Counted from the stretch's first letter, positions 1-62,894 are shown. The stretch: 64,000 nt of DNA from a virus (IMGVR_UViG_3300045988_144274:1-64000), one strand, 5' to 3'. The notes: generated by a model from the sequence alone, not told the origin. Made by a program: numbers and translations.

Positions 1-33
1 CTTTTTTTTTTGTAAAGTTAATGATTTATTTCA

Positions 34-89
34 AATTTCTCTCAAAACGGTTATCAAAAGTTCAATAATGGGCTGATGATTCAGTGGGG
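34..89. repeat. Left copy of a perfect 56-bp inverted repeat (partner 590-645)
   Basis: Base-by-base reverse complement of 590-645 equals 34-89. The match breaks at 33/646 and 90/589. Confidence 0.97.
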
Positions 90-336
90 GAGAGTTGGAG
101 GTTCATCTACAGCTTCGTATGGTGTGACTATGCCTACATCTTTTTATAATACTGAATATAAAATATTTGCGACTGTATACAAACCTAGTAGTGACTCTGC
201 GATATATTCAGCTTCTCCTATAGCAACAAATAAGACCGTTAGTAGATTTTACTTAAATAGGAATTATGCAAGTGGGGGTACTACTGGATTATCGCAAGAA
301 TCATGGGATTGGTTTGCAATAGGACGTTGGAAGTAA
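76..336 (+). CDS. Silent alternative tail-fibre C-terminal cassette (would fuse to the fibre after inversion)
   Basis: Starts inside the left IR (MIQWG). Homologous to the C-terminus of 337..1269 (MPTSF..., W.F/W.AIGRWK end). No obvious own promoter. Confidence 0.6.
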   Translation: MIQWGRVGGSSTASYGVTMPTSFYNTEYKIFATVYKPSSDSAIYSASPIATNKTVSRFYLNRNYASGGTTGLSQESWDWFAIGRWK

Positions 337-589
337 TTATTTCCATCTGCCTATTGCTATCCATTCAAAGTACCAAGTTGTAGTTTCAACATTAGTACTT
401 CCTTGCCCTATATATCTAGTATAAATAGTAAAATTGGAAGTATTTTTAGTATAAACAGAGGGTGAATAAACTATTCTTTCATATATATTACTTAATATAC
501 CTGCTGATTGTACGTTATAAGTGGAATTAATAAAGCTCGTAGGCATAAATACGGTTTTCCCACTACCTGCCCCTGCACCTTGTGTATAT
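90..589. other. Putative invertible DNA segment (500 bp) carrying two opposed tail-fibre tip cassettes
   Basis: Flanked by the 56-bp IRs. The two cassettes meet stop-to-stop at 336/337, and both are in frame with the IR-encoded MIQWG. Confidence 0.6.
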
Positions 590-1269
590 CCCCACTGAAT
601 CATCAGCCCATTATTGAACTTTTGATAACCGTTTTGAGAGAAATTATGCGCTGAATCCCAATCTAAGCCGCTTCCACCACCGCCAGCACTTATATCTAAT
701 ACAGACCAATTATTTGTACTTAGATTTAAAGAATATAAAGTTATAGCATCATTATATGGAATACTAAAAACCACATCAGAACCATCTACTATGCTAAAAT
801 TCAATACACCTACATAGCCTTTTCTATCAACACTAGTTTGTAAATAAAGAGGAATAACTTTAACCCCCCATCTTTTTAAAATAGTCATTACTTCTGCCAA
901 TTCATTATCGGTTGCAGCCTTGCCATCTGATATTAATTCAAAATTTAAATTATCAGTATTAACCATATATATATCACCTCCACCACTACTTCCTATTCCT
1001 GCATCCTCAAATGTATTGCTAGAATTTAACCTGTAATATCTATCATTTTTTACATATACTAGCATTCCTTCTTTTCTTCTTGCAGCAGGAATAGCATTCA
1101 TCTCGCTTACACTATCTACTGTTCTATATCCTCCTACACCATATTTTTCGTCATGAGTAGCATATTCGTCTGAATCAGTATAGGGAACTATTTTAGATGC
1201 AACATTTGTACCTTTGATTTCTGCCATAAGATTATATTTTGGAGAGAGAGCGATTTTGCCCCCCCCCAT
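337..1269 (-). CDS. Tail fibre protein with exchangeable C-terminal tip
   Basis: N-terminus (MAEIKGTNVASKIVPYTDSDEYATHD...) is paralogous to 1280..3364. The C-terminal tip is homologous to 76..336. Sits in the tail-fibre cluster. Confidence 0.75.
   Translation of the reverse strand: MGGGKIALSPKYNLMAEIKGTNVASKIVPYTDSDEYATHDEKYGVGGYRTVDSVSEMNAIPAARRKEGMLVYVKNDRYYRLNSSNTFEDAGIGSSGGGDIYMVNTDNLNFELISDGKAATDNELAEVMTILKRWGVKVIPLYLQTSVDRKGYVGVLNFSIVDGSDVVFSIPYNDAITLYSLNLSTNNWSVLDISAGGGGSGLDWDSAHNFSQNGYQKFNNGLMIQWGYTQGAGAGSGKTVFMPTSFINSTYNVQSAGILSNIYERIVYSPSVYTKNTSNFTIYTRYIGQGSTNVETTTWYFEWIAIGRWK
590..645. repeat. Right copy of the perfect 56-bp inverted repeat; lies inside the tail-fibre ORF 337..1269
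   Basis: Reverse complement is identical to 34-89. Encodes ...FSQNGYQKFNNGLMIQWG of the fibre. Confidence 0.97.
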
Positions 1270-1279
1270 TTGTAAATAA

Positions 1280-3364
1280 TTATTTAAATTCTACAGAGAG
1301 GACTCCTGTCTGAATATTCGCTAGTCGCATAATTGAGTATGTAGCACTTCCTCCTGATGCATTGGTTACAGTAGCACTTGTAGTAACGACATCTGTATTT
1401 TTTAGTCCTCCTACCCAAAATTCGGGAGTTCCTAATGAAGATGGTATTACATAATAGACATACTTTCCGCCCGTACAGTCAAAAGTAGTTGCGCCCATAG
1501 CTTTTGAACCAGCCCATGTACTTCCTGCTAATGCAATAACTTGGGAAGAAGTTAGAGAAGCACTAGTTGATGTACCCCAATACTTTTTATATTTAAAAGT
1601 ATAATTTACAGTTTTGGTAGCATTTTGTGAACCGTAGGTAGCCTTAACTGCAACAGAAGTATTAGATGATATATTTGTTGATGGTGTCCAAGTTTTTTTA
1701 TCAGAACTTAGCGAACCTGTCACACTTCCTGATGCTGTTACTGTTATTGTCGAACTAGAAGTGACATCTGTTCCTTTTCTAGTTACAATTATACCTATTG
1801 CATTTTTATTGCTTGACCCTACTTCAAAAGTTCCTCCGCCACTAGCAGTTAACGATAGAGGGAATGTAGCTAATTCTATCTCTTGCAGGGTCTTGTACAT
1901 ATCTGCTGTCATAACACCTGCTTTTGTAGTTGTAGCGGCAGGTATATCATATCCATCGCCAGTATTAACCTCTCCAATCAAATATACTATATCATTTTGT
2001 AATCTAACAAAATTGGCTTCCGGTTGAACAACCAAATCCTTTAATATGCTTGTGTTCCCTAATGAATTAAACAACGACATATTATGGAAAAAATCACGTG
2101 CAGCTCGTGTTCCTGTTAGATTAGTACCACTACCAAAATTTGTATAAAGCGTGTTACCATAGTCACCTCGGAAAGCGGTAGAAGAAGTTGTACCTAAAGC
2201 CAAAGCGTTTCCGCTACCGATATTAACCATATCCGTACCAGTCCAATAATACGATTTGTTTGCATTTTGGTCAATATAAATCATATCATTACCAATAGGG
2301 TCAGATACAGAACCGCTTGTAGCACTTGTTGCAGTAAATATCTTCTTAGTAGTAGTATTATACCATTTTTGCCCGATAGTCATTCCAGAACTAGGGTTAG
2401 TTGTAACAAATGCTACTAACTTGTCAACGTTATCATATCCTGCCGGAAGCTGTGACGCTGAAATCTTACCGCTAGCATCAAGACCCGCTACGCCATTAGC
2501 CTGATTCTTATTGCCTATACCGTTCTTCCATGTTTCAAGAGTAGTAACCCTTCCTGAAACAGCATTTATACTTCCATCTATCGCAGTTCTTTGTGACTTA
2601 ACATAAGTTACTACAGCACCCACAGACGGGACTGCATCATGCGCTGTCTCTGTTCCATCAATACCAGTATCTATCTTTGATTTTGGGATAGCCGCATTTG
2701 CTATATTATAAGCTTCAACAGCACGGTCTAGTACGCTCTGTATTGCTATTGATATATTTGTAGCGGTTGTATTTAATAGCTTTGTACTAGGAACTCTTGT
2801 ATCTAATACATTATCGTCAAAAGCTGTATCAATATAGCTTTTAGGAATAGCTGCGTTAGCTGTTGCTAATGCACTATCTGCTTTAGCATTTGCCGAATTT
2901 GCTGTAGTTTTTATAGGTGAAATTGCACTGTTTATTGCCTTTGATGAAGCCGGATTGTCACTTGTTGCGTTCCAAACTGTATCAACAGTAATAATAGGAA
3001 TGTTATGAGTATATTCTGAAAGGAGTGTTATATTATTTTCTATAGTATGCACCCTAGTTGTTATCGCCTTATTTTGTACTGGATTAGTACTGGTTGCATT
3101 AAGAGCTGTATCTATTACAATATTCCCTTTAGGTAACCATTCAACCCAAGCATTATTTTTCCACTCATAGTTCAAACCATTCGCTGTCACACGAACAATC
3201 ATACCCTCCGTTTTTCGCTCAACCGGAATTGCGTCACGATCCTCGATTGTCGATACACTTCTAAAACCACCTTTCCCATACTCCGCATCATGTGTTGCGT
3301 ATTTATCAGCATCGGTGAATGGAACTACTATCGCAGCGACCTGCGTTCCTTTTAATTCTGCCAT
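1280..3364 (-). CDS. Tail fibre protein (694 aa)
   Basis: Shares its N-terminal ~60 aa with 337..1269 and its C-terminal ~110 aa (KKYWG...FDCTGGKY.YY.IP...MRL.NIQTG.L.VEFK) with 3373..7098. Ala/Thr/Ser-rich repeats. Confidence 0.75.
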   Translation of the reverse strand: MAELKGTQVAAIVVPFTDADKYATHDAEYGKGGFRSVSTIEDRDAIPVERKTEGMIVRVTANGLNYEWKNNAWVEWLPKGNIVIDTALNATSTNPVQNKAITTRVHTIENNITLLSEYTHNIPIITVDTVWNATSDNPASSKAINSAISPIKTTANSANAKADSALATANAAIPKSYIDTAFDDNVLDTRVPSTKLLNTTATNISIAIQSVLDRAVEAYNIANAAIPKSKIDTGIDGTETAHDAVPSVGAVVTYVKSQRTAIDGSINAVSGRVTTLETWKNGIGNKNQANGVAGLDASGKISASQLPAGYDNVDKLVAFVTTNPSSGMTIGQKWYNTTTKKIFTATSATSGSVSDPIGNDMIYIDQNANKSYYWTGTDMVNIGSGNALALGTTSSTAFRGDYGNTLYTNFGSGTNLTGTRAARDFFHNMSLFNSLGNTSILKDLVVQPEANFVRLQNDIVYLIGEVNTGDGYDIPAATTTKAGVMTADMYKTLQEIELATFPLSLTASGGGTFEVGSSNKNAIGIIVTRKGTDVTSSSTITVTASGSVTGSLSSDKKTWTPSTNISSNTSVAVKATYGSQNATKTVNYTFKYKKYWGTSTSASLTSSQVIALAGSTWAGSKAMGATTFDCTGGKYVYYVIPSSLGTPEFWVGGLKNTDVVTTSATVTNASGGSATYSIMRLANIQTGVLSVEFK

Positions 3365-3372
3365 TTTTCTTA

Positions 3373-6300
3373 TTATTTAAATTCAACTTCTAGAATCCCA
3401 GTTTGAATGTTATTTAGACGCATTACTTTGTATGTTTCAGTTACGTTTTTACCATTTGTTATTTCCATATCATAGACAATAACATCGGTATTCTTGAAAC
3501 CGTTTATCCAAAAACTAACGCCTTCTCCATAAACATCAAACGGTATAATGTAATAAATATATTTCCCACCTGTACAATCAAAAGTCGTTTTCCCCATAGT
3601 ACGACTAGCCCATCCGTTATTCATTAACATCACATCACCATTGGTCAATTCAGTTACAGAAGATGCGCCCCAATACTTTTTCAAAGAAAAAATATAGTTT
3701 GCTGTTTTTTCAATAGATTGGCTTCCGTAAGTACAAATCACTTTATAATTTTTATCTGTAGTAATTGTAGTAGGAGACGAATATTTGGATTTCTCCTCAT
3801 TAACTCCTTCCGTGCTCCCATTTACGGTTGCAGTTGTTGGCACAACTTCTTCATCTTTATATAAAATAGACCAAAAAATATACGGAGTAACAACTGATCC
3901 CTTTTCAAAAGTTCCTCCGCCAACAAAAGTATCGAACGAAATTTTAAATACCTCGTCCATTAATTCATTTATATTCATAGTTACAACTTTATTTTGCACT
4001 GCATTTGTTGAATTTAAATCCAAGTGGTCGTCTATTGTTATGCTACCACCGCCACCTGTCGGTATGTTAACTGTAATTGGTGCAGAACCATCATATATAG
4101 CTTGTATTGCACCTGTAAAAGAAAGAGCATTAGGATTAGGAAGTTTTGTCGGAGTGTCAGGAACTTTAATCCACTCTTTGTTTTTACGACCATATAAGAT
4201 GTTATTGCTTGGGGCATCAGTTATGCCTTCTGTCATACTCTTTCTTTCCTGCGTCCATTCCGTAGAACCAACTTTTTTTACAAGTACGACATCTTCTGTA
4301 GCAATCTCATCTACAATAGGATTGACATTATATAAACTACCAAGAGTTTGAGGAATTTCTACAGCTTTGATAATCCCGGAATCTTCCTGTATGAAATCTC
4401 CGTTACCCTCTTGAATATTATCTATGCCACCTTCACGCAGGAAATCGGTAGCTCCTTCCTCGCTATTCCCAGTAACATAAATCCCGTCTTTAAATATTAT
4501 ATGTCCGTTAGCTGTATCATCAACATCTTTTCTAATAAAGTATTTCAGTCCCATCTTTAAAAAGTCGATAGAACCGATAGACGACATAATATCCTGTTTT
4601 ACAGCATCAATAGATTTTTGGACATTACCTTTACGTATCGTTATGGTATCGGATAATTCTACCGTAATTTCAGGAAGAGGGTCTGTCTCATTTACCTTAT
4701 AAGTGTATTGACTGATATACAGTTCATGCAGCTTGTTGTTATACTCTATCTGCAATCGTGCATTAGCATCAATCTGTGAAAGCATTTCAGGATATTCAGC
4801 AAAGAATATACGCTTAAAGTTAATAGAGAAGTTGAATTTTTCACTATTATTGGCAGCCATATACTTAATGATAGCTTCTTTAAGCTCATTCTCTGCATTA
4901 AGGATATATTGTTTAGGCAAATCAATATGTAACAGAACAAACGAATCTCCTGATTTAGGCTTATAGTTGCGGTTGTTAGATGGCATTACAACTCCGAATG
5001 TATCATCATCTTTGCTTACCCTAATCCATACCTCATTTGTGGTTGTATCTTGTTGTTGAGGCTGAATATTTGCCTCATTCCATTTATCATCCTCACTACC
5101 TGTTACAATATTGCCATTAGAATCCACTTGTACAGGATTCTTGAATATTGTGATATTATTGTCTTTATCTTCTACTTCTAATACGGATATGACAAAATTA
5201 CAAGCAGCACAATTACCACTCGTCATTGAGATGGTCATATCACTACCTACGATAGCTTGGTCAAAGAGATTAAAGCCATAATCCCCATCAAATTTTCTTA
5301 GCTTTATGTAGAAATATTTATGTTCGTATTCATTTGTGTTAGGGTCTATTTCATCGTTATCATCATCATCAAAAGCTACATCTAATATTTCTCCTATTTT
5401 ATATCCTGCTGCATTTTCAATACCTTTAATAGTTGGCTTGATATAGTCAAAGGAAACAATCATTTCCTTAGGATTACCTTCCGTATAAGGGTTCTCGAAG
5501 TCGTAGTAGCTTCCTGTATCAGGATTTATATAGGTTTGGTTTTTTGCGTCATAGAATCGTTCTGCACCAAACGTCTCTCTGTATATAGATGGCAATAGAT
5601 TAGGAGAAGTAATCATATAATTTCCTTCAACTTGCTTTTGAACAAAGTAATCTCCAATAGAAGGTGTTTTTGTAATATATATGCCAATATTGCTAAGACT
5701 AACAGTATTATCTTTATAACTCCATAAGTTATATTCTGCTGTTGATTCTCTACTTATTTCAAGAAAAGCTTTTTGATTCCCATATACATAATAATCACTA
5801 ACATTTACTAAGGTAGAATAAGAACCTACTATTTTTAATTTATTTGTTCCTTCATTAAGATTAAACGATACTGTCGTTTCAGAGTTTTGGTCGGCTTTAA
5901 TTAAAATCCAATCTGTATCTGATTCATTTCTTTTATATAAAGAAAATGAAGCAAAATCCATTTTTCTTGAAGCTTGCTTTTCTCCCAATATAATACCACC
6001 CTTTTGTATATAGGAATATTTTAAGTTAGCCCATAATTTTAAAGTTAAATAAATAGTAGCTTCATCAGATAAATCTATTATTGCATAATAATTATAAGAC
6101 GTTTCAAACCATTTAAAATTCGCTGTAGATCCATCTCTAATAGTTGGAACAGTCTCTACCGCTTGTGTATAAGGGTATTGCTCATTTAAATTAATGTATA
6201 ATTGAGTAGTAATAGGAAGCTTAGTTTTTTTAAATTCAACCTTTTCTTCCAATGAAACCTTCTCTTTATATAAATCGTTATTTACGACTTGTATATCTTC

Positions 6301-7098
6301 TGTTTTAATTGAGATATTATCTTCTCCGGCAACAGCCCTGACATCTCCTTTTCTCGTATCATTTGGATAGTAATAAGGAATATTTTCAGTACTACCGATA
6401 CCTGTACAGCGATTAACTATTTTATAGTTTGCGTTTGTTTTGGTTATTGTCAGTAGTTCCCTATCATAACCGTATTTAAATGTATGAGTAATAGCATTAT
6501 TAGTAAATCCGATATGGATTACCTTACCGACAAAATAATAAGGTAGTTCATAAACATTAAATACTTCTTGTAGAACTTCACTAAAATACTTGTCCTCAAA
6601 CGACATTAGTTTAGCTTCGGAGGATATACCTTCGTCAATTACAACAGAATAACCTACTCCACTGTATTGTAAAGAGTAATTCAATCTTGTTGCAAACTCT
6701 GCAATATCTCCAAAGAAGGTGAACTTTGTACTATTGCTGACAAATTGGTCTACATCACCTGCATCAGGAGATACTACATCAAAGAAATAAGTATTATCCA
6801 GTTTAGTTCTATCGGATTTAAATACAAGCTCATGTTTATATCTTAAATCTGTATTTGACTTAGATGAAGTAGGTGTATCTAAAATCCAATATCTTTCTCC
6901 CCTAAATTCCACAAATTCCCTCTGCGTCCATTCATCATCCAAGCACTTAGGATACATGAGACTGCTACTTATATTTACGCTACCCATTCTTCCCTCGGTG
7001 AATGTATAACTACTAAGGGCAGCTTGCGTTCCATCTTTAGGGAAAGATATAACGCCTAATTCCTCATCATCAGTATATATAAGTAACTTTTCTACCAT
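3373..7098 (-). CDS. Large tail/baseplate structural protein (Tal-like N-terminus, fibre-like C-terminus)
   Basis: 1241 aa. The N-terminus resembles the siphovirus tail-associated / prophage-tail N-terminal region. The C-terminal domain is paralogous to 1280..3364. Confidence 0.65.
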   Translation of the reverse strand: MVEKLLIYTDDEELGVISFPKDGTQAALSSYTFTEGRMGSVNISSSLMYPKCLDDEWTQREFVEFRGERYWILDTPTSSKSNTDLRYKHELVFKSDRTKLDNTYFFDVVSPDAGDVDQFVSNSTKFTFFGDIAEFATRLNYSLQYSGVGYSVVIDEGISSEAKLMSFEDKYFSEVLQEVFNVYELPYYFVGKVIHIGFTNNAITHTFKYGYDRELLTITKTNANYKIVNRCTGIGSTENIPYYYPNDTRKGDVRAVAGEDNISIKTEDIQVVNNDLYKEKVSLEEKVEFKKTKLPITTQLYINLNEQYPYTQAVETVPTIRDGSTANFKWFETSYNYYAIIDLSDEATIYLTLKLWANLKYSYIQKGGIILGEKQASRKMDFASFSLYKRNESDTDWILIKADQNSETTVSFNLNEGTNKLKIVGSYSTLVNVSDYYVYGNQKAFLEISRESTAEYNLWSYKDNTVSLSNIGIYITKTPSIGDYFVQKQVEGNYMITSPNLLPSIYRETFGAERFYDAKNQTYINPDTGSYYDFENPYTEGNPKEMIVSFDYIKPTIKGIENAAGYKIGEILDVAFDDDDNDEIDPNTNEYEHKYFYIKLRKFDGDYGFNLFDQAIVGSDMTISMTSGNCAACNFVISVLEVEDKDNNITIFKNPVQVDSNGNIVTGSEDDKWNEANIQPQQQDTTTNEVWIRVSKDDDTFGVVMPSNNRNYKPKSGDSFVLLHIDLPKQYILNAENELKEAIIKYMAANNSEKFNFSINFKRIFFAEYPEMLSQIDANARLQIEYNNKLHELYISQYTYKVNETDPLPEITVELSDTITIRKGNVQKSIDAVKQDIMSSIGSIDFLKMGLKYFIRKDVDDTANGHIIFKDGIYVTGNSEEGATDFLREGGIDNIQEGNGDFIQEDSGIIKAVEIPQTLGSLYNVNPIVDEIATEDVVLVKKVGSTEWTQERKSMTEGITDAPSNNILYGRKNKEWIKVPDTPTKLPNPNALSFTGAIQAIYDGSAPITVNIPTGGGGSITIDDHLDLNSTNAVQNKVVTMNINELMDEVFKISFDTFVGGGTFEKGSVVTPYIFWSILYKDEEVVPTTATVNGSTEGVNEEKSKYSSPTTITTDKNYKVICTYGSQSIEKTANYIFSLKKYWGASSVTELTNGDVMLMNNGWASRTMGKTTFDCTGGKYIYYIIPFDVYGEGVSFWINGFKNTDVIVYDMEITNGKNVTETYKVMRLNNIQTGILEVEFK

Positions 7099-7102
7099 TA
7101 TA

Positions 7103-7133
7103 TTTGCTATTTTAAAATAAAGCCGTATATTTG
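7103..7133 (+). promoter_or_regulatory. Bacteroidota-type promoter-like element, TTTG-N19-TAnnTTTG
   Basis: TTTG at 7103-7106, a 19-nt spacer, and TATATTTG at 7126-7133, on the strand opposite the surrounding genes. Confidence 0.35.
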
Positions 7134-7172
7134 TATGTGTTTATTATATGGCTTTGGATAAGGACATTTTTT

Positions 7173-7225
7173 CCCACTACGTTTATCGACATTTGCGTAG
7201 TGGGGTTCTTTATTCTTTATTATTT
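7173..7225 (+). terminator. Intrinsic terminator oriented for the plus strand
   Basis: A 9-bp stem (cccactacg 7173-7181 / cgtagtggg 7196-7204) followed by a T-rich tract. On the minus strand it would be followed by A6. Confidence 0.45.
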
Positions 7226-7600
7226 TCTTTCATGGATTGGTGCAACGCTTCTACCTTTTTTAGTTATTAGCTCTTCGGCTCGGTCTACGAAATCAGATAC
7301 GGGACACACTGCATCTTTTGGTAAATGGGAACATTTAACCCATTGTTGAATAGCTTTCTGTAATACAGAATTGGTTATTTCTATTTCACCTAATCTTCGT
7401 TCCAATTTTTGCCTTTCTTGTGCAGCCTCTAGCTTGTCCTCTTCTCTCTCTTTCTTTATAGTTTCTATTATTTCACGAAGAGTTTTTACCTCGTAGGATA
7501 TTTTTTCAGGACGTGCTTTATAGAAAGCTATCAATACTGTCAATATTCCCCCACTTCCCCCTATAGCTAATGCTAATTGTATAATATTTGACCAATCCAT
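7220..7600 (-). CDS. Membrane-anchored coiled-coil protein
   Basis: N-terminal TM segment (IIQLALAIGGSGGILTVLIAF), then a charged coiled coil. Operon context. Confidence 0.55.
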   Translation of the reverse strand: MDWSNIIQLALAIGGSGGILTVLIAFYKARPEKISYEVKTLREIIETIKKEREEDKLEAAQERQKLERRLGEIEITNSVLQKAIQQWVKCSHLPKDAVCPVSDFVDRAEELITKKGRSVAPIHERK

Positions 7601-7648
7601 TATTTCTATATTTCTTTGTTAATATTTATACAAAGATAATAATATTTT

Positions 7649-8005
7649 TTATAACACGGTATTTTTTGTACTCTTTCTTGTTTTAGAAGAAGTAGTTTTC
7701 ACCGTTGGAGATTCAAGAATAGATTCGCCTAAAACAGAATTATCTTGACTAGTCCATTCGCTACTTTGCAATAAAGTATTTAGGGCATCTCCTTCATAAG
7801 TAGGATATGGATATATTGGTTCAACAGGAGTATCTTCTCCTAGTTCAGGAAGAGTTACAGCAAGAGGGAAAAGTAATTCGTAATTTGCGACTTTCATTAA
7901 TACAGATTCCCCATCTGTGCTTACTCTAGGTACTAAATGCAACTCATTTAACGTCTCTTGTGGAACTTCGTCTAAAACGGATTTTGGTAATACAATATAT
8001 TTCAT
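7649..8005 (-). CDS. Hypothetical protein
   Basis: ORF in the operon, tightly spaced with 8007..8303. Confidence 0.5.
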   Translation of the reverse strand: MKYIVLPKSVLDEVPQETLNELHLVPRVSTDGESVLMKVANYELLFPLAVTLPELGEDTPVEPIYPYPTYEGDALNTLLQSSEWTSQDNSVLGESILESPTVKTTSSKTRKSTKNTVL

Positions 8006-8304: not shown

Positions 8305-11300
8305 TTATTGTATAAATATTGGGTTAGTTAAATCAATTATTTCATCCTTTTCCATCAGGTTCTTTAGGAAGTTAATCTGTAATAATGGTATGGTTTTAGG
8401 ATAGAGGATTAGTTTGTAGAATACCATATTAGCAAATCCTGCATTACCATCGCCAGCGATACATATTCCATTTGTATCTTGTTCACTTCCTCTAGTTATA
8501 ACATTACCGTTATAATTTGTAGGAGTAATAAAAGATATATTGTCCGGTAGTTCTCCTTCCATAATGTCAGTTCTTTTATAGAAAACAAAATTATATGCTT
8601 TATCCCATTCAAGTAACAAAGCATTTCCATTGCCTCCTTCATACACTTTACTTCCTTTTATTAAAGGACAACCCTGTTTTTTTAGCCATTCCCTTTTTAT
8701 TATTGCTGTAAAATCATCAAGTGCGGGAATATTGGCGTTCTTACTATAATCAGTTATTCCGTCATATACTAGACCATTTTCATATTCAGGAAGAACTTCG
8801 ATAGTAATATCACAATCAAATTCTTTAACTCCTTCGGAAATAGGAGTTACTGTAAATCCTACCCATACACCATTATGTAATGAATCACTTGGAATATAAG
8901 ACTTGGGTAATTCATGAGTACCATTTTCTAAAACCGCTATGGTTTCAGAGATAGCATCTTCTGTTTTTAAATACCTATACCATAATTTACTTTTTCCTTC
9001 AAGTCCACTTACTTTAATTTTAAAAGAAGGTATTTCTTTAACATTAAGAAGAGAACCATTTAGTTTTACATAACTAAACAGTAAACCGTTACCTGCAATT
9101 AACGCTTTAGTGATATGTAATTTATTATCCTCAATATTCCATGTAAAATTCCCTGTTGACATTTGTTCCCAATTTTTATTAGCACCAAACACAACAGGGT
9201 AACCATTATATCCACTCATACCTTCGTAAGCATGATTATAATTAGTTAAATCATAATCACCTATGGCTATACCTCTCTGTTGAATAGTGTCTTTATCAGC
9301 ATCAGAGTTAGTCTTACCATAAGCGTCCCAATAATAAGGCGGTAATTCTACTTTAGCTTCAACGCCCACATACTCGTTCAATTCCTGTATCTTGTCATCT
9401 GTTGATATTTCATCGAAGAGCATGAAGTCGTAGAGAGACATTTTTAAGAAGTTCTCTAAAGAATATCTACAACCAATATAAGGAATACCACTTGCATTAT
9501 TGAATTGACTAGTAATATTGTGAGTTATATCCTTTAAATCACCGGAAGTAAGATTTGCATTTAAAATTCCATCTATATATGTTTTAGAGGCATTTTCATA
9601 GGCTATTTGTTCTTTGTTTCCCTTGATGATAAAGTTTCTATATTCTCCTGTATTACTATCATACATATAACCCGGAGCATCATAATCATTCTGCCAATTC
9701 ACCTTCATCAACACCTGCTTACCACCACTAAACAAAGTAGGAATAGTAACAAAGTCGTTTACACCATCGAACTGGTATGAACCATCTTCATTAACTCCAC
9801 TACCTTTTGCATAAACAGAATTATGAATGACACCATGATTACCATGACCTGATATATCGGGGATATAACCTAAAATCTTATATGAACTATTGGGTATTCT
9901 TAATAATCTAGGAGATAAGATTACTTTTGGTTCATTGTTGTCAATTAGATATTTAAATGGCATATTCCAACTAAAGACCATCTCTTTGGCAACAACTCCG
10001 GGCTTAATACCCCAATTTAATACTTCTCCATTATATAATACATTACCTTGCCATTCGTACATATTAGGTAATAAGTTAACTACGTCACCCTTAAACCTAG
10101 CACCTAGTTTTAGTTTACTTCCCCAACTATATACCTCTTCTGTATCATAATCAATAAGAGTAAATAAAGATGGATACGGCTGCACAATATCCTCGTATCT
10201 GATGTACTCGTCAATAGTGATGTCTATCTTTTGAGGGGACTTGGAAGTTAGATTGAAATCATATTGATATATATTATTATTAGCATCATGAAATTTAAAA
10301 GTAGCTGGAATTCCATTAACAGTAATAGATTTTATTTCATTAACAGGACTACTACTTAAACGTATGTGCATACCAATAGAAGAACCAACCGTAAGATAAG
10401 TCCCATTTTCTACTTTCTCATTTTTATAATAAAATACGATATTGTCATACGAAGTATTACTCTTAATAACAGGTCTAAATTCAACCATATTAGGATATAG
10501 AGTACCCAGCTTGTGCTTCTTCAACTGGCGCTCTATCAAGAACTCGGACATGCTATAAGGGAAGGACATGAGAGAGTAGATAGCTCCGTTGAAGAAACGA
10601 TGATCATTATCTCGAATCGTGCCTAACCACATATCAGTGCCATCTTCTGCTGCACCTGCTGTTATAGATTGCCCGCAATAAGAGTATTTAGATAAATAAG
10701 ATATACTTCTAGTAGAAATAAAATTTAGACGAGAAGTAGCTTGACCAAAACTATAAACACTATTTCCGGCAGTTTCCACAAATGCTCCCGGATTATTCTT
10801 TGACGATATAGCTCCAGTATTAGCAAATATTTCTCTATCGGTTACTACCGTATAATCCTTGTAAATCGGCATTCCTGTCACCTTACCGAAGTCATTTACT
10901 CCGTCAAGGCATAGACCACCTGCGTGGGAGGGAATCTGGGTGATGGTTATTATGTTGGCTTCGTTCTTTACAACTTGAAATCCCGAAGTATTACTAATTT
11001 GAGGCTTGGCAGTTCTGAAATCAGATGGTAATGTATAATCTCCGTCTTTAGTTATCGAATAAACATTACTTTGTCCGTTTGAATCATAATATCTATAAAT
11101 CAACTCTTGACCTTCTAATAAACCTTTTACTTGGATTTTAAAAGAAGGCATATCGACACTATTGGTTAGTTCTGTATTAGCAAATATTATCCATCCTGAT
11201 AAACCATTATAACTACTACTAAAAGGAGAAGAAGTTGTTTCTTTACTTTGAGTCCATATACTTGTATTAGAAAGTTCTGTCTCATACTTCCCAATACCTG

Positions 11301-42522: not shown

Positions 42523-43416
42523 TTAAAACGGGCGTGCTTTAACTTGTTTTTTCTTTTCTTCCTTGATAGTTTCCGGTTCACCTGCACTTGCATTTGCACC
42601 ACTAAGCTCTTCTTTATTATTCAATGTGGACGCATCTACAGTTTCCGTTACTTCTTCGTATTCTACAACTTCACCTACTTGTTCAGTGCTTAGTTGCTTC
42701 AAATTACTATTTGTTTGTTCCTCATTATCATCATCATCAAAAGCTTTTAATTCAGGAGTGGAATTTATAATCATTGTACATCCTGAATTTACAAGTGTCT
42801 TTTGCAGCATTTTCTCATCAAACTGTTTATGCGTTGCTTGCTCCCTAGATGAACTCTTAGACCATGCAGTCAATATTTGTTTACGAGTCATTTCGTAAAG
42901 ATACATCTCTCCATCTTTAGATGGCAAATATATATATCCTCCTATAAAATCTTTATCTAGGTTTTCTAATTTTTGTACGTGTTTCAAAAGTTTCTTCTTA
43001 CCTGTCTTAGGATCAACTTCTGTTACATATTCATCCCCTTCTCTAATTGAGTGCGGCATTGGCTCCCAATCAGGAAATATGCGTTTTACCATAAGTACAT
43101 TCCCAAAATATCCGGGGTCTATACAAAGATCTGTTCCACGAACTACAGCATACGCCTGATTATAAGCTAAATTCAATCCTTTTGTAGCCATTTTAAAAAG
43201 TGCTGAACTAATGCTTACAGGGTCACAAACCTCTAATGCCGGACGCTTATCCTTATCTTTCAACTCTTGTAACTTTAGAACGCTCATCTTGATAGCATTC
43301 ACATAGTTATAATCTTTAGGGAAATTGAAATTAGCTTGGGCTAATTCATTCAATCTTCCAATTACTTGGTCGCCAATGTTATTTCTTAAAGCGACATTTT
43401 TTTTCTCATCTGCCAT
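42523..43416 (-). CDS. recT: RecT-family single-strand annealing protein
   Basis: The pattern SISSALFKMATKGLNLAYNQAYAVVRG...DPGYFGNVLM resembles the RecT core. Acidic C-terminus. Confidence 0.7.
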   Translation of the reverse strand: MADEKKNVALRNNIGDQVIGRLNELAQANFNFPKDYNYVNAIKMSVLKLQELKDKDKRPALEVCDPVSISSALFKMATKGLNLAYNQAYAVVRGTDLCIDPGYFGNVLMVKRIFPDWEPMPHSIREGDEYVTEVDPKTGKKKLLKHVQKLENLDKDFIGGYIYLPSKDGEMYLYEMTRKQILTAWSKSSSREQATHKQFDEKMLQKTLVNSGCTMIINSTPELKAFDDDDNEEQTNSNLKQLSTEQVGEVVEYEEVTETVDASTLNNKEELSGANASAGEPETIKEEKKKQVKARPF

Positions 43417-52929: not shown

Positions 52930-53150
52930 CTTTTATTATTAAATTCGTTTACACATTGGTATTATTACTTCTTCGATTTCTCTCCATGGTACTTATTTAT
53001 GAGTCTACACAAGTATTCTCAATGGTGTCTCCACTCCACCTCTACTCACTACTTGCATATAGCTTTCGTGAGATACTTTTCTTAAAATTCCTATCGTTCC
53101 GTTAAGGTCAGCATTCAGGATTTTCCCTGTACTGCTACGGTATAGACCTC
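52930..53150 (-). ncRNA. Predicted position of the TnpB guide (omega/right-end) RNA; position inferred, not seen
   Basis: By analogy with IS200/IS605 TnpB systems, the scaffold overlaps the 3' end of tnpB and runs into the right end. Only 77 nt separate the tnpB stop from the next gene. Confidence 0.25.
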
Positions 53151-54180
53151 TCTTTATTCGTTTACCCAAGTAACTATCATGGTGACACATCTCTTCTCCG
53201 GCATAGTGGTCAACTTTAGAAGTATAGCTTTCTTCTGTTATGACTACCCTTATTCCCACTTCTTCGGATTTATACTGTATCATGGATATAAGCTTTTCAA
53301 ATGGTATGCTTACAAAGTTCTGATTGTTTCTCTTTCCCATATTACAGTTTTGCTTCCAGTCTTTATTGTTTCCTATTACAATAGTACCGATATGATGTTC
53401 TATACAATAGTTTACAATAAAACGTGATGCTTTATGCATATAGTCATTTACTTTACAATTTCTCTTTAATGTCAGCTTACCTATTCTATTACTCGTACCT
53501 CTGTTCCCTATATAGCTCATGAGTAATGATATTTTCTTGTTAAAGTATTGGTTGATGGATTTCAACGGTCTGCCATTTACGATAAAACTCTTTTGATTGA
53601 GTGAATCGTATGAAGTTACAAGATTATTCAATCCTAAATCAATACTCAAATAAGAATCCGGCTCTAGTCCGGTGGTTTCAATACTTTCCTTTTCATATAC
53701 TACTTCTATTATGTGGCAACTACATTGAGGTATAATCCTCACTTGGCACAAATTAGTCACCTTTGTTCTTAACGGTTGTATGTTCGCTTTCTTCGGGAAG
53801 TGGATGTATCCGTCATTCAACTTGCATTGTTGCGAGGTGAATACGACTATGTTCCGTCCTTTCGTCTTATGCTTGTACTTTGGAAGTTTCGGTTTTCCTT
53901 TCAACTTGTCCTTGCACTTGCACAGCTTGAAGAACGACTCCCAGTTCTTGAATAGCAACTTAACTATCTGTTGACTTGTCTGTGACGGTAGAACGATATA
54001 GTCAGCCTGTTTTTCTTTTGCAAGCCTTGTAGTAACTTCATATTCAGATAACATCTTCCCATTCTGCGTAAATTCCTGACGTATCAGATAGTTCACGTAG
54101 TTGTACAAGTTCTTGGATAAAAAGCAAAGATTATCCAAATTCTTATCTCCAATGATAATATGTCGTTCTACTCGCTGCAT
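53005..54180 (-). CDS. tnpB: TnpB (IS200/IS605-family RNA-guided nuclease, OrfB); no tnpA present
   Basis: RuvC-like triad strings SIDLGLNNL (D), ITEESYTSKVD (E), ILNADLNGTIGILRK (D). 391 aa. The GKRIKRGLYRSSTGKILNADLNG segment is typical of one TnpB subgroup. Confidence 0.8.
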   Translation of the reverse strand: MQRVERHIIIGDKNLDNLCFLSKNLYNYVNYLIRQEFTQNGKMLSEYEVTTRLAKEKQADYIVLPSQTSQQIVKLLFKNWESFFKLCKCKDKLKGKPKLPKYKHKTKGRNIVVFTSQQCKLNDGYIHFPKKANIQPLRTKVTNLCQVRIIPQCSCHIIEVVYEKESIETTGLEPDSYLSIDLGLNNLVTSYDSLNQKSFIVNGRPLKSINQYFNKKISLLMSYIGNRGTSNRIGKLTLKRNCKVNDYMHKASRFIVNYCIEHHIGTIVIGNNKDWKQNCNMGKRNNQNFVSIPFEKLISMIQYKSEEVGIRVVITEESYTSKVDHYAGEEMCHHDSYLGKRIKRGLYRSSTGKILNADLNGTIGILRKVSHESYMQVVSRGGVETPLRILV

Positions 54181-56154: not shown

Positions 56155-56889
56155 TTACTTCATTATCTTTTTAAGTTTCCGATACATTGCAGCAGCACGA
56201 ACTGAATTATATTCCATTCCTGTAGCTGTCTTTTGATTCAGATTATTCAATTTTTGTGCAATATCTCCCCAAATTTCGTAGTTTCTAGGCTCTCCCTTAT
56301 CTTTTATCCAATCAGTAATGAAAGCCCAAAAAAACACATTACTTTCATTAACACGTGCATTTTCTCGCCTTTTGTTTGCGGACTCATCGTGCATCTTATT
56401 TATTGAAACTATTCTATCTGTAGAACTATTCTTTCCCCACAATTCTTTTGTTCCTCCTGTTTGCTCATTACGTTTTTTCTTTGCTGCTAAAGCCGCTTTT
56501 GTACGTATGCTAACCAACAATGCTTCTCTTTCAGCCAAACTGAAGAATAATGTCAAAGTAAATTTGTCACTATTAGGTAAATCACAAAAAACAATATTGT
56601 TTTCACCAATTTCCGCTAATACTTGTAGTGCCTCTAATGTATTACGGAAACGATCGCACTTAGCAATAATCAATTTAGCATTTTCTTTCTTTGCGTGTTC
56701 AATCGCTTTCCGTAATTCCGTACATTTAGACAATTCCGTTCCGGTATAAATTTCTTCATAGTCCGCCAACAACAAACCGTTATCTTTTTCTATGAAGTAA
56801 TTTATAATGTCTTTTTGTGCCTCAAGTCCTAAACCAGATCGACCTTGTTTTTGCGTTGACACCCTACGCCAAGAAATATACTTATTCAT
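56155..56889 (-). CDS. Small serine recombinase (resolvase/invertase family)
   Basis: N-terminal YISWRRVSTQKQ (catalytic Ser), LIIAKCDRFRNT, E-helix-like AEREALLVSIRTKAALAAKK, C-terminal helical/HTH-like region. At 244 aa it is too small for a large serine integrase. Confidence 0.8.
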   Translation of the reverse strand: MNKYISWRRVSTQKQGRSGLGLEAQKDIINYFIEKDNGLLLADYEEIYTGTELSKCTELRKAIEHAKKENAKLIIAKCDRFRNTLEALQVLAEIGENNIVFCDLPNSDKFTLTLFFSLAEREALLVSIRTKAALAAKKKRNEQTGGTKELWGKNSSTDRIVSINKMHDESANKRRENARVNESNVFFWAFITDWIKDKGEPRNYEIWGDIAQKLNNLNQKTATGMEYNSVRAAAMYRKLKKIMK

Positions 56890-58240: not shown

Positions 58241-58256
58241 GGCACTTATATACGAC
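58241..58256. repeat. Left terminal inverted repeat core (16 bp perfect)
   Basis: ggcacttatatacgac. The reverse complement is found at 62879-62894. Confidence 0.85.
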
Positions 58257-58316
58257 TCAACACCTAGCCTTGTGCCATAACTTTTAGTTATAACTTTGTT
58301 AATCTTTATGAGAGTA

Positions 58317-59181
58317 TCATTTTCTGATACTCTCTATTTTATTTGTAAATTCAGAAATGTCTTTTCCTTCTAGTTCTAAAGTCTCTTTGACCTCTGCTAG
58401 AACTTTTGGTAAATATTCTAATGAAAGTGGATCTTTCTTCCCTAAATATTTGGCAGCATAAACAGGTAGCCAAACTCCATGTACAAACTCTATAAATATA
58501 TGAAGCATTTCATTTGGATACATATTTGCAGGGAACTCATACCCATTAGGAAACTTGTGTTTATAGTTTCTTTTATTGTTCAGCATTTCAGGATATTTAT
58601 CTTCTAAATAGGCGACAAAACGCCTTCCCACTGAATTATCTGGGCGAATCTCCTTATCATCAATACCTTTATTAGGTATAACATATCCATGATATTCAAA
58701 TAATCGGTTTAATGTTAAATATAATTGAGATACAACAGAAAAATAAGTTATTGGTGTTCGTTTATCATTTTCTTTAAATCTAGTGAGAAAATTAGGTTCT
58801 TCTTTCCTATTAATTTTGCCATAATATCCTTTCTCCCGAATAGAAGGAATCACTTCATCAAATATCCATGATTCAAATCTTTCAGCAGATGGGAGTTTAG
58901 AACGAATAATTAAGCGGTAAACATCTCCTTCGGGTATAAAATTCATATTTACTCCACCTATGCCATTGGCATGAGCAACATAGCATTTCTCTATATTGCC
59001 TGATTTACAATGAGTTGTAACAGCTTCTGCGGGGTTTTCATATCCTAACATTTTCGCTACATCGGATGCACAAAAAAAGTATTTTACCATCTTCCTTTTC
59101 GATAGTTCTCAATTCGTTAAATTGAGATTCTTCTTCCGATTCATATTTGAATATCTCAAATTGATAATTAATATTTTCCAT
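58317..59181 (-). pseudogene. Bro-N domain protein gene split by a 1-nt frameshift in a homopolymer
   Basis: Fragment 59181->59038 encodes MENINYQFEIFKYES..NELRTIEKEDGKI. The ORF 59090->58317 continues YFFCASDVAKMLGYENP. Together they rebuild a canonical Bro-N. The shift lies in A4 (59082-85) or T7 (59072-78). Confidence 0.6.
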
Positions 59182-59274
59182 ATTTTCTTCATTTATACTT
59201 ATAAATAAAAAAGCTCTTTCTAGTTGGTGTTAACTGGAAAGAGCATGTTTCTTTTTCGACTGCTAAGATAGCAA

Positions 59275-59472
59275 TTATTTTTCAATCTTCCAATTTATTT
59301 TTGTATAAAGTGAAATAAAGAAGAAGCCTATCAGGCACATAGATACTATATCTGTTACCATAGATATAATTGGTGAAATTTTAGTGATTAGACAAATAAT
59401 CGCCATGATTGCTTTTAATAGGCATCCTATAAATGCTATTAAAGATGCTGTTTTGAAATTTGTTATTCTCAT
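59275..59472 (-). CDS. Small two-TM membrane protein
   Basis: 65 aa, hydrophobic. Confidence 0.5.
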   Translation of the reverse strand: MRITNFKTASLIAFIGCLLKAIMAIICLITKISPIISMVTDIVSMCLIGFFFISLYTKINWKIEK

Positions 59473-59501
59473 TTTATTGGGTTATTAATTTACTTATAGA
59501 G

Positions 59502-60068
59502 TTATTTCCATTTATCAAGATTTCCTTTCTGTATTTCTTTCTCAAATAAACTATAGGCGTCCCTTGCTTTTTCAGCTGCACTCTTTTTGATTTTAAAATC
59601 AAAATATCCATCAGTAGTATAGATTCTTACAGAAGTCATCAACTTATTTTTGAATACAGATAAATCACCTAATAACAAATACCTTATTCCCCATGAATCC
59701 ATACCTAGTGCTCCTACAGTTCCTTCACCATGTCCTGCTGCATAATCTGATATAGTAAAGATGTGTGTATTATCATCTTCATCAAGGAAAATAACTTTAG
59801 ATTCATTTCTTTTGGCTATATATACATTTATTGACATCCATTTCATCAACATCATATCTAACCCATTCTCATGTCCAAAGCATATCCATATAGTTTTCCC
59901 TAATTGTCTCCCCATTATTAATGGTTCAGAAGATATTTTCTCATAAGACGTGTACACAACTTTGTCTTTTGTGAATTTATCAGTTTTGCTAACTTTAATA
60001 CTTTGAGCTTGAATATTGATGCTAAACATCAATAATAATAGAAGTATAATATTCTGTTTCATAATCAT
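59502..60068 (-). CDS. Secreted protein (signal peptide)
   Basis: N-terminal IILLLLLMFSINIQAQS signal-like sequence. Confidence 0.55.
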   Translation of the reverse strand: MIMKQNIILLLLLMFSINIQAQSIKVSKTDKFTKDKVVYTSYEKISSEPLIMGRQLGKTIWICFGHENGLDMMLMKWMSINVYIAKRNESKVIFLDEDDNTHIFTISDYAAGHGEGTVGALGMDSWGIRYLLLGDLSVFKNKLMTSVRIYTTDGYFDFKIKKSAAEKARDAYSLFEKEIQKGNLDKWK

Positions 60069-60445
60069 TTCTTGTTACATTTAAATTTAGTGTATATTGT
60101 TTCATTATTTAAAGTGAACTGTAATTCACAATATTCCCACCATAATTCAGTTACATAACATTTAATGTACTCTTGTTCTCCTACATAAAAAGTTAGATTT
60201 CTTTTGGACAGGTGCCATGTACCTGATACATTTCCTAGATAGCCATTTGTCGAATATGAGCCATCAGGTCTGATTGTTAAAGTAATTTGTAAACTTGGAT
60301 TTTTAGAAACTCCAACCCATTCTTCATTTTGTTTTATTTGTTGCAATTTCCATGTTCCCATCAAAGCATCTTTATAAAGATTGTCTTTTGCACAACTTGT
60401 GCATAATAGAATAGTGAATACAAAAAACGGCAAATACTTTCTCAT
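60065..60445 (-). CDS. Lipocalin-like lipoprotein
   Basis: Lipobox LLCTSC followed by AKDN. GTWKL motif typical of lipocalin-like domains. Confidence 0.6.
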   Translation of the reverse strand: MRKYLPFFVFTILLCTSCAKDNLYKDALMGTWKLQQIKQNEEWVGVSKNPSLQITLTIRPDGSYSTNGYLGNVSGTWHLSKRNLTFYVGEQEYIKCYVTELWWEYCELQFTLNNETIYTKFKCNKK

Positions 60446-60453
60446 ACACTTGT

Positions 60454-60472
60454 GTTTTATTGGTTAATACTA
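60454..60472. repeat. Inner inverted repeat, left copy (18/19 match to 62444-62462)
   Basis: gttttaTtggttaatacta versus the reverse complement of tagtattaaccaTtaaaac. Ends 8 nt from the ATG of 60065..60445. Confidence 0.8.
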
Positions 60473-60514
60473 AATAATAATGTTTCCATTTAGTTAGCAT
60501 CACCTCACGCATAT

Positions 60515-60725
60515 ATATGAAAAAGGCGTAGAGCTAATGCCTAACGCCATCGAGGGCTACCACACCCTACTCACTTATAGGCAAAAGTCTACGCCAGTAT
60601 ATGGCGTATAAACGCAATACACCCATAAGTGAGTTCCAAAATAGCCTTATTGCTGTCAATGTGGTAGTTCGATGGCGATTAGGCTATAATACGTAAAAAG
60701 CGTACCATCTATTCGATGATACGCT
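60515..60725 (-). promoter_or_regulatory. Highly structured 5' leader (riboswitch-like) of the lipoprotein operon
   Basis: Nested helices: P1 60539-60553 / 60669-60684 (15 bp, 1 bulge), P2 60557-64 / 60660-67, P3 60569-81 / 60623-34, P4 60590-95 / 60603-08. A terminator at 60520-60548 shares its 5' arm with the P1 3' strand. Confidence 0.5.
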
Positions 60726-60726
60726 G

Positions 60727-60757
60727 CAAATATAGATATAAAGTTTGATATTTCAAA
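60727..60757 (-). promoter_or_regulatory. Promoter-like TTTG-N19-TAnnTTTG on the minus strand
   Basis: The plus strand shows CAAATATA at 60727-34 and CAAA at 60754-57, with a 19-nt spacer. Confidence 0.4.
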
Positions 60758-60890
60758 TTAAAGTATTAATTATAGTTACTGATAATCTTCCTTAAAAAAT
60801 AAAGAAAATATTTTTTAATCACGTAATAAATTATACATTTGCATTGACTTTTGGAAAAGGAGCTAATAACACTTACCGTTTTTGCACCTA

Positions 60891-60927
60891 AAAAAAATGA
60901 AACCCAGTATCCTACTACTGGGTTTTT
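60891..60927. terminator. Bidirectional intrinsic terminator
   Basis: 10-bp stem aaacccagta (60900-09) / tactgggttt (60916-25), with A7 upstream and T5 downstream. Confidence 0.7.
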
Positions 60928-60990
60928 GTCTTGTAGTAGGATACAGGACATTAAACAGGCTAAAAGCCAAAAAAGGAAGGAGGTGTTATT

Positions 60991-61128
60991 ATGTCCAATT
61001 CCAAAGTCATCAATGGTAAATTATGCAAGTTGATATTTGCTAAATCTATTATTAGAAATGGTAAAACGATTTATCCAAAGAAATCTAAAGTATTCGCTTT
61101 TTGGATTCCAGTAGAGAAATCGGCTTAA
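60991..61128 (+). CDS. Small basic protein (45 aa) with a strong SD-like leader
   Basis: GGAAGGAGG lies 8 nt upstream of the ATG. The frame was checked to the TAA at 61126-28. Followed by a hairpin. Confidence 0.3.
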   Translation: MSNSKVINGKLCKLIFAKSIIRNGKTIYPKKSKVFAFWIPVEKSA

Positions 61129-61140
61129 TAATTTATCGCT

Positions 61141-61162
61141 ATGGGGTGGTAGGACACCCCAT
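61141..61162 (+). terminator. Hairpin after the small ORF
   Basis: atggggtg / caccccat stem with a weak T-run. Confidence 0.4.
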
Positions 61163-61182
61163 ATTTAATCATAGCATTACCG

Positions 61183-61374
61183 TTACTCCTTCTTCTTTTC
61201 CTCCTTGTCTTTATCTTTCTCATCTTCAACTTGATCCGGTGTTTTCCCTTCCGCAATGTGCGCCATCTTTCGGAGCAGTTCATCGAACTGTTCTTTAGGA
61301 ACAGAAAAGTTAATCTCTAACCTCACTGTTTTAATGTTACTTAGGTCTATTTCTTGTTTCTTTTTCTTTCCCAT
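61183..61374 (-). CDS. Small Lys/Glu/Asp-rich protein downstream of the transposase
   Basis: Starts 3 nt after the transposase stop. Confidence 0.45.
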   Translation of the reverse strand: MGKKKKQEIDLSNIKTVRLEINFSVPKEQFDELLRKMAHIAEGKTPDQVEDEKDKDKEEKKKE

Positions 61375-61376
61375 AA

Positions 61377-62279: not shown

Positions 62280-62431
62280 AACGTCAAATTTTTAGCTATC
62301 CAAATATACTAAAAATCAACGATATTAGCAAGCCATTTGCAATATATTTTCAAGGAAGTTTTTCGCAAGAATGCTAAAGAACATTCTTATACAACATATA
62401 GAGCAATGTACTGCTTACAAACTATAAACAG

Positions 62432-62439
62432 TACATTTG
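62432..62439 (+). promoter_or_regulatory. TAnnTTTG box upstream of the KTSC gene
   Basis: TACATTTG. No clear TTTG at -33. Confidence 0.3.
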
Positions 62440-62443
62440 CGAC

Positions 62444-62462
62444 TAGTATTAACCATTAAAAC
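62444..62462. repeat. Inner inverted repeat, right copy
   Basis: See 60454-60472. Ends 8 nt from the ATG of 62471..62662. Confidence 0.8.
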
Positions 62463-62470
62463 GACAAAAT

Positions 62471-62822: not shown

Positions 62823-62878
62823 AATCTTTATTTTTTAATTGTTATTACTTTTTGTTATGACCTAAACACTAGTGTCGG

Positions 62879-62894
62879 GTCGTATATAAGTGCC
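62879..62894. repeat. Right terminal inverted repeat core (16 bp perfect)
   Basis: gtcgtatataagtgcc is the reverse complement of 58241-58256. Confidence 0.85.

Follow-up and report, generated by a model that had tools for sequence, protein, structure and literature searches.

The 64,000-nt viral DNA stretch IMGVR_UViG_3300045988_144274:1-64000 (hereafter, the window) carries close to its first base a tail fibre gene, the C-terminal part of which lies in a 500-bp segment flanked by inverted repeats (IRs). The segment encodes two alternative fibre tips in opposite directions, and in near-identical phage genomes from different gut metagenomes the same block was found reversed. We estimate at about 80% the probability that this is a real two-state invertible switch for the receptor-binding tip of the phage tail fibre.

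The proposed switch would work as follows. The body of the fibre (residues 1-208) is constant; it is followed by 19 junction residues, for which the IR codes, and by a lectin-like tip domain of ~83 residues. A diverged second cassette lies tail to tail behind the first one, and the sequence heading it repeats that of the junction exactly in inverted form. Reciprocal recombination within the 49-58-bp IR would flip the 500-bp segment, joining the other tip in frame to the same body and turning the former tip into a silent copy. A weak tail-fibre-assembly-like gene located just outside the segment would serve both states. Flipping may be frequent within a phage population and would probably change which Bacteroides surface glycan or strain is bound.

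Structure of the invertible segment

Positions 34-89 are the exact reverse complement of positions 590-645 (56/56), with 500 nt between the two arms. Elsewhere in the window perfect IRs do not exceed about 22 nt; the second-longest IR, 54 nt with 70% identity, has the ends of a transposon as its arms. The fibre open reading frame (ORF; 337-1269, minus strand) encodes 310 aa. Its constant part (646-1269, minus strand), comprising an N-terminal anchor domain, a middle domain, and a Gly-rich linker, is followed by the right arm (590-645, minus strand) and then by tip B. The arm encodes residues 209-227 (NFSQNGYQKFNNGLMIQWG), which form the first helix and strands of the tip domain and are immediately preceded by the Gly-rich linker, modelled with low confidence. 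Tip B, expressed here, corresponds to cassette B (337-589, minus strand), which contains the last 83 residues of the fibre and the stop codon.

Cassette A (90-336, plus strand), silent here, encodes 81 residues and a stop codon and is preceded by the left arm (34-89, plus strand), whose outer edge falls at an identical nucleotide in all intact modules examined. The called ORF 76-336 (plus strand, 86 aa) represents cassette A extended by an in-frame ATG (Met) codon from the left IR. The stop codons of the two ORFs adjoin (334-336 and 337-339). Tips A and B are 37% identical at the protein level (E=6e-13). The block of 100% identity has sharp edges, since the cassettes share only 46% DNA identity beyond the IR and the flanks outside the arms are unrelated (6/33 positions alike). 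In-silico inversion of the segment (90-589) places tip A on an uninterrupted fibre of 308 aa and leaves tip B in a short ORF of 88 aa. Thus, the features proposed for this locus in an earlier note, namely perfect 56-bp IRs, two opposed cassettes with abutting stops, a diverged tip homologue in ORF 76-336, and an in-frame exchange of tips upon inversion, were all confirmed.

Both tips belong to the Pfam family PF21882 (Gp53-like_C), which they matched over the full-length domain with 42 and 45.9 bits, above the gathering cut-off of 24.9. The tip profile matched the AP22 gp53 tail fibre (PDB 4mtm, E=1.9e-8) and the short tail fibre in 9zd7; a phmmer search of the fibre against PDB gave no match, and the profile of the tips was needed for this assignment. 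The AlphaFold2 model of the fibre (mean predicted local distance difference test score of 72.8, ~80 in the tip) consists of three domains. The modelled tip domain starts exactly at the beginning of the IR, after the Gly-rich linker, and ends with the conserved W-x-A-I-G-R-W strand. A fold search with the tip retrieved the C-termini of R1-type pyocin fibres, 4mtm, and the GalNAc-binding Helix pomatia agglutinin, an H-type lectin. The predicted glycan-binding, receptor-recognising role of the tip is well supported by homology. The tip is thus homologous to, or shares a fold with, the AP22 gp53 tip (4mtm) and the C-terminus of the R1-type pyocin fibre (6cl5, 6cxb), and we know of no invertible module that includes either of these two.

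The true start of the fibre is probably the ATG at 1227 (296 aa, MAEIKG...) rather than the upstream one, judging from its agreement with the N-terminus of the neighbouring paralogue (MAELKG...) and from gene calls in relatives, most of which use it. Directly after the upstream ATG of the fibre ORF, positions 1261-1269 form a G9 homopolymer (C9 on the plus strand). At this place relatives read MGGGK, MGGGGK, MGGEGK, or MGGAK, and most gene calls begin 14 codons later; the run may be prone to slippage and lie ahead of the true start, or it may be noise from sequencing. At the other end of the gene (310-363), the conserved C-terminal codons of the two cassettes (W-x-A-I-G-R-W-K-stop) meet tail to tail as an imperfect palindrome (e.g., TTGGAAGTAATTATTTCCA). 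The palindrome does not depend on the orientation of the segment, and it might serve as a hairpin or terminator behind the fibre gene.

Natural inversion and distribution of the module

The window is a part of the ENA contig ERZ27260994:k119_58613 (85,761 bp; locus L001), which is 100% identical to it across an 11,269-bp overlap and reaches 9.6 kb further left. Comparison of related contigs revealed three pairs from different gut metagenomes, in which the IR-segment-IR block is reversed at 99.5-99.8% identity. In two of these pairs the flanks match as well, with breakpoints inside the IRs. The first pair comprises L001 and L004, the latter from another human-gut study. After in-silico flipping, they show 8 differences in 3,400 bp, compared to 292 without flipping. 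In the blastn alignment, a 612-bp block (10625-11236) was aligned to 9847-9236 in reverse with 99.67% identity, and forward alignments were broken at the IRs.

The second pair represents another backbone and was found in three samples: L079 has tip A expressed and tip B silent, and L080 and L081 have tip B expressed and tip A silent. Here 598 bp are reversed at 99.83% identity, the downstream region is 100% identical over 2,747 bp, and the upstream region is 99.8% identical. The arms of this lineage differ in their outer 7 nt, which remain with the flanks in both states; therefore, the crossover occurred inside the shared 49 bp. The third pair involves tips A and C: A is expressed and C silent in L002, and the opposite holds for L053. 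Its 612-bp module is inverted with 99.5% identity. The flanks are unlike, with only 84% identity downstream and with fibre bodies of differing types, so that one module is seen here in either orientation, each time in another backbone. Since the segment is reversed in two independent A/B backbones with essentially identical flanks, inversion at the IRs is a recurrent natural event, which proceeds faster than point substitutions accumulate in the flanks. All these assemblies were made by MEGAHIT with k-mers of 119-141, as indicated in the contig names, which is longer than the IR, and therefore every junction was spanned by real k-mers.

Protein data agree with the presence of two states. The 90%-identity cluster of tip B contained exact 88-aa short ORFs on at least 21 contigs. 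The 86-aa short ORFs of tip A were found on 10 plus 8 contigs, and the tip-A cluster also included full-length 308-aa fibres. Three proteins (P0020, P0035, and P0044) combine the fibre body of the window with tip A and are 1-5 residues off the predicted chimera. Exact look-up of the predicted chimera and of the predicted 88-aa ORF gave no match in the protein collection. A scan of metagenome contigs for the exact IR yielded three loci, too few for crossover mapping.

The module was surveyed in 18 related IMG/VR loci. It was intact, with two cassettes, in five of them (L007, L009, L010, L017, and L019), and a decayed silent cassette was present in three (contigs 161124, 146366, and 144273). Nine loci had a single tip directly followed by the next gene, as in L003, and the remaining one (L022) contained no tip match. 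In every two-cassette locus examined, there was one IR pair and two cassettes. The decayed loci (L043 4710-5160, L044 2522-2972, and L046 3884-4334) retain 31 nt from the outer side of the silent arm and, after a deletion, the final ~36 codons of a cassette. A full-length, open silent cassette with an intact IR of at least 47 bp was found at 12 loci. The check in relatives proposed in the earlier note thus gave a positive result, as the IR-cassette-cassette-IR layout is kept in them; both orientations were found in near-identical genomes from different samples. The short ORF 76-336 is not an independent gene persisting in relatives without IRs, an outcome that the note had considered, since L003, which lacks the IR, also lacks this ORF.

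The IR sequence differs between genomes at up to ~10 positions, giving QKFNNG, QKFSNG, or VKFQTG junctions and MI or ML variants; the blocks CTCAAAACGGTTAT, GGGCTGATG, and CAGTGGGG are invariant. Within a genome the two arms are identical or 1-2 positions apart, with perfect runs of 47-58 bp. Since the arms co-vary between genomes, they undergo concerted evolution at the DNA level, which implies gene conversion between the arms. The sole exception is L055 (4600-5330), where the arms differ mid-way, having not been homogenised, and the silent cassette is frameshifted. Together with the three decayed loci, it probably represents locked states.

The tips are diverse. At least 11 tip families were distinguished at 60% identity among 143 retrieved proteins, and up to five different tips were found on fibre bodies with at least 98% identity. 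Therefore, the junction is a general hotspot at which tips are exchanged, one use of which is the invertible module. The fibre body in relatives comprises 196, 296, or 400 aa, corresponding to zero, one, or two middle domains. In the window, the fibre gene belongs to a co-directional array of fibre-like genes for proteins of 1,241, 694, and 310 aa. The 694- and 310-aa proteins have a common N-terminal anchor (phrog_23630), and the 694- and 1,241-aa proteins have similar C-terminal ~150 residues. The fibre set of the window (337-7098) and its relatives is strongly modular.

Several points weigh against the proposed two-state switch. Both orientations were seen between samples rather than inside one sample or phage stock. 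Half of the surveyed relatives are single-tip and three have a decayed cassette, so the module is dispensable and sometimes lost. The effect on host range is inferred, and the phage is uncultured.

The region to the left of the window includes a 182-aa gene downstream of the fibre, with a weak match to tail fibre assembly proteins (phrog_188, 1.3e-7), then another fibre-like gene, and other genes. The putative assembly gene thus lies outside the invertible segment, which holds the two cassettes only. In L056 (10001-15135), a single-tip relative of the fibre again has the 182-aa gene downstream and belongs to a prophage that encodes a tyrosine integrase; the contig is chromosomal and 516 kb long. 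Therefore, the fibre module is common to a temperate prophage and the ~86-kb phage. Base 1 of the window and the end of L007 (IMGVR_UViG_3300045988_157758, position 1) are the same homologous nucleotide, a C ahead of a T9-10 run, 32-33 nt outside the silent IR arm, and the ENA assembly continues through this point. This shared end may reflect either a break that recurs in assemblies or a true genome terminus.

Mechanism of inversion and rival explanations

Pfam scans of 98 ORFs from 7-64 kb matched 9 and 20 families, listed in full. The matches related to recombination were one Resolvase-domain protein, a DDE transposase of the IS1595 family, IS605 OrfB/TnpB, RecT, and a T7 gp5.9-like RecBCD inhibitor, the last located somewhere in 36-64 kb. 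Neither a tyrosine recombinase (Phage_integrase) nor a reverse transcriptase was among them. A diversity-generating retroelement (DGR) was rejected because of the missing reverse transcriptase match. No recombinase was found in the 9.6 kb left of the window or within ~40 kb on the other side. It had been suggested that an adjacent invertase or further cassettes could lie just out of view, and the 9.6 kb to the left holds neither. A relative covering most of the genome outside the window contained no further recombinase.

At slightly below even odds, we tentatively favour homology-driven exchange between the arms, performed by the phage RecT pathway or by host RecA, because the arms co-vary and no intact module has less than 47 bp of perfect identity. 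The candidate protein for such exchange is a RecT-family single-strand annealing protein (42523-43416, minus strand). Its presence together with the RecBCD-inhibitor-like gene was counted in favour of this mechanism, as were the absence of an adjacent recombinase and of dyad symmetry in the IR, where the best score in a symmetry scan was 8/12, no better than in shuffled sequences. The frameshifted silent cassette of L055, with its non-homogenised arms, was counted likewise. Three points stand against homology-driven exchange. Every characterised phage fibre switch, to our knowledge, uses a site-specific invertase; a serine recombinase matching phrog_125 'DNA invertase' is encoded in every near-complete genome examined; and the missing dyad symmetry is weak evidence.

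A realistic, if somewhat less probable, possibility is that the same switch is site-specific and that this small serine recombinase (244 aa; 56155-56889, minus strand) acts in trans as the invertase on a core site in the IR. It has an N-terminal catalytic domain with the RVSTxxQ motif, matches Pfam Resolvase (3e-13) and phrog_125 (1.5e-17), is the only site-specific recombinase gene in ~83 kb examined, and is present in all near-complete two-cassette genomes checked. The fixed outer boundary of the IR and its three invariant blocks also argue for a recombination site, as does the site specificity of all known fibre switches. Bacteroides master invertases such as Mpi act on distant sites.

On the other hand, the gene is ~55 kb from the segment (~30 kb the other way round the circle). 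It lies inside the window, yet it is not specific to switch-bearing genomes, being equally present in single-tip relatives with up to 100% protein identity, and therefore its presence says little. The protein scored 28 bits against the Mpi model (NCBIfam NF009949), the cut-off of which is 272, and matched only the Resolvase domain, with no HTH_7. Its homologues are common in virulent phages that are not known for invertible segments. Among 76 matching records, 54 came from Escherichia phages; other homologues were found in Klebsiella, Vibrio, and Phapecoctavirus records and in phages of Bacteroides and Parabacteroides. Annotations of these homologues vary between resolvase, invertase, and integrase. 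A dyad-symmetric core is missing from the IR; one stretch of it, TTATCAAAAG, bears what we take to be a casual resemblance to a hix half-site. Finally, site-specific exchange alone would leave the co-variation of the arms unexplained.

A non-adaptive origin, in which the second cassette is left over from tip replacement through recombination within the conserved junction and the two orientations result from occasional neutral rearrangements involving the repeats, seems improbable. It is consistent with the extensive swapping of tips on identical bodies (up to five of the at least 11 families per haplotype), with the one-tipped state of half of the relatives, and with the three deleted and one frameshifted silent cassettes. 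However, the silent cassette is full-length and open, with a long IR, at the 12 loci mentioned above, and the same silent cassette is expressed in other genomes. Moreover, inversion has recurred in at least two independent backbones with essentially identical flanks, and short ORFs of both tips are common, indicating that both states are common.

Quite improbable is the action of a serine or tyrosine invertase of the Bacteroides host, which would flip surface loci of the host as well and thereby couple the switching of the phage tip to host phase variation. Many invertases encoded in Bacteroides genomes act in trans, and no dedicated phage invertase adjoins the segment. However, the IR has only a partial match to the Mpi IR consensus, noted by eye rather than in a formal comparison, and its variation between genomes fits poorly with the site of one host enzyme.

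It is very improbable that the two orientations are an assembly artefact or that ORF 76-336 encodes a small protein expressed on its own. Assemblers can be misled by repeats, and the 86/88-aa ORF is indeed called as a gene. However, the k-mers exceeded the 56-bp IR, and independent assemblies of different studies agree. The short ORF was always accompanied by the IR, has the Met codon of the junction peptide as its start, and is antisense within the co-directional fibre gene array.

Building on homology-driven exchange, the module could be a minimal self-sufficient host-range plug-in that needs no dedicated invertase, a possibility that we consider doubtful. RecT or RecA would flip the segment, and gene conversion would keep the ~56-bp coding repeat perfect. 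The whole block also seems to move between unrelated fibre backbones and to draw on a common library of at least 11 tip families, which would provide abundant Bacteroides phages of the human gut with a combinatorial counter to the phase-variable capsules of the hosts.

Known switches, the phage and its host

The principle of such a switch is textbook knowledge; what is new is the setting, the natural evidence for two states, the minimal architecture, and the missing invertase. In the classical systems (Mu G/Gin, P1 and P7 C/Cin, e14 Pin, and p15B Min), an IR-flanked segment likewise lies inside the fibre gene at the junction of its constant and variable parts. As in Mu G and P1 C, alternative C-terminal parts are encoded in opposite orientation and swapped in frame, presumably with a change of host range; occurrence of the segment in both orientations and in-frame alternative C-termini are common to these systems and the locus described here. 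In contrast to them, no Din-family serine invertase (~190 aa, with a C-terminal helix-turn-helix) adjoins the segment, and instead of a 26-bp dyad-symmetric gix/cix/hix site there is an IR of 49-58 bp. In Mu, the assembly genes U and U' are inside the segment, whereas here the putative assembly gene is outside and shared. The 500-bp segment contains two single-domain cassettes of 81-83 residues, and the host belongs to Bacteroidota rather than to Enterobacteria as for Mu and P1. The location of recombination sites inside the coding sequence, initially taken to distinguish this locus from Mu, is no such difference, since the Mu IRs also sit in coding sequence, at the Sc/Sv junction.

In R64-type shufflons the C-terminus of an adhesin is also exchanged by inversion. 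Shufflons have an adjacent Rci tyrosine recombinase, multiple segments, and 19-bp asymmetric sfx repeats, whereas here there are two cassettes, one IR pair, and no Phage_integrase among the Pfam matches. DGRs, such as those of BPP-1 and the Bacteroides Hankyphage, vary the receptor-binding tip of phages as well and are known in gut Bacteroides phages, but their mechanism is unrelated, since the system described here chooses between two pre-formed cassettes. Gene-altering inversions were surveyed in bacterial genomes and prophages by Milman et al. 2023 (PMC9881135), who found recombinase genes to be enriched among the neighbours and phage tail proteins to be an enriched target class. Like these cases, including the hsdS genes of Type I restriction-modification systems, the locus consists of a long gene and a short inverted partial copy sharing the IR, and the IR overlaps the coding sequence with the shorter inverted partial homologue nearby. 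Unlike them, it resides in a free, apparently non-integrating ~86-kb phage without a neighbouring recombinase. Full-text literature searches, the coverage of which is incomplete, did not reveal any account of a fibre tip that inverts in gut phages of Bacteroidota.

The genome of ~86 kb encodes a 1,933-aa tape measure protein, TerL, and the major capsid protein of a long-tailed phage. Blastn of region 1-3400 against GenBank phages gave no match, and tblastn against GenBank revealed only ~45% matches of the N-terminal anchor to B. thetaiotaomicron phages. Judging from these searches, the phage appears to have no cultured relative. Assignment to 'Flandersviridae' was dropped, since these phages encode polA and no DNA polymerase A family was among the Pfam matches here.

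Relative to the close relative L059, the window contains a 4,654-bp insertion (58241-62894) with imperfect terminal inverted repeats of 54 nt and an 8-bp duplication of the target (TCTTTTAT) at its borders. Its cargo comprises a Bro-N gene (58317-59090), other ORFs, and the IS1595-family DDE transposase (61377-62279). In the collection, 2,264 blocks contain exactly this transposase protein; the two contigs examined proved to be SusC/SusD-bearing, Bacteroides-like chromosomal sequences. The transposase is 84-88% identical to copies in genomes of Bacteroides species. Therefore, a host transposon jumped into the phage. The association with Bacteroidota proposed earlier is supported by these transposase copies and by the anchor matches to B. 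thetaiotaomicron phages. The related fibre in the integrated prophage of L056 was counted as a further link to Bacteroides.

A TnpB-type IS605 OrfB gene (391 aa, window 53005-54180) has no TnpA beside it. In L003, a similar 395-aa TnpB (6703-7890) is inserted between two fibre genes. TnpB-only elements therefore seem to be mobile in this phage group. An IS607-type pair formed by the serine recombinase and TnpB was ruled out, as the two genes are 2 kb apart and the catalytic domain of the recombinase is N-terminal.

Bacteroides escape phages by phase-varying their capsules and surface proteins, and the known counter-measure of phages in the gut Bacteroides ecosystem is the DGR. The fibre-tip flip-switch recurs in phage genomes assembled from many human gut samples; it would add a second counter-measure of a simpler kind and could explain the persistence of such phages beside phase-variable hosts. 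For metagenomics, apparent strain-level differences at this locus would represent one genome in two states. The switch also has a bearing on host prediction and on the engineering of phages with switchable receptor-binding tips. If inversion is recombinase-independent, ~50 bp of coding homology alone can maintain switches that look programmed.

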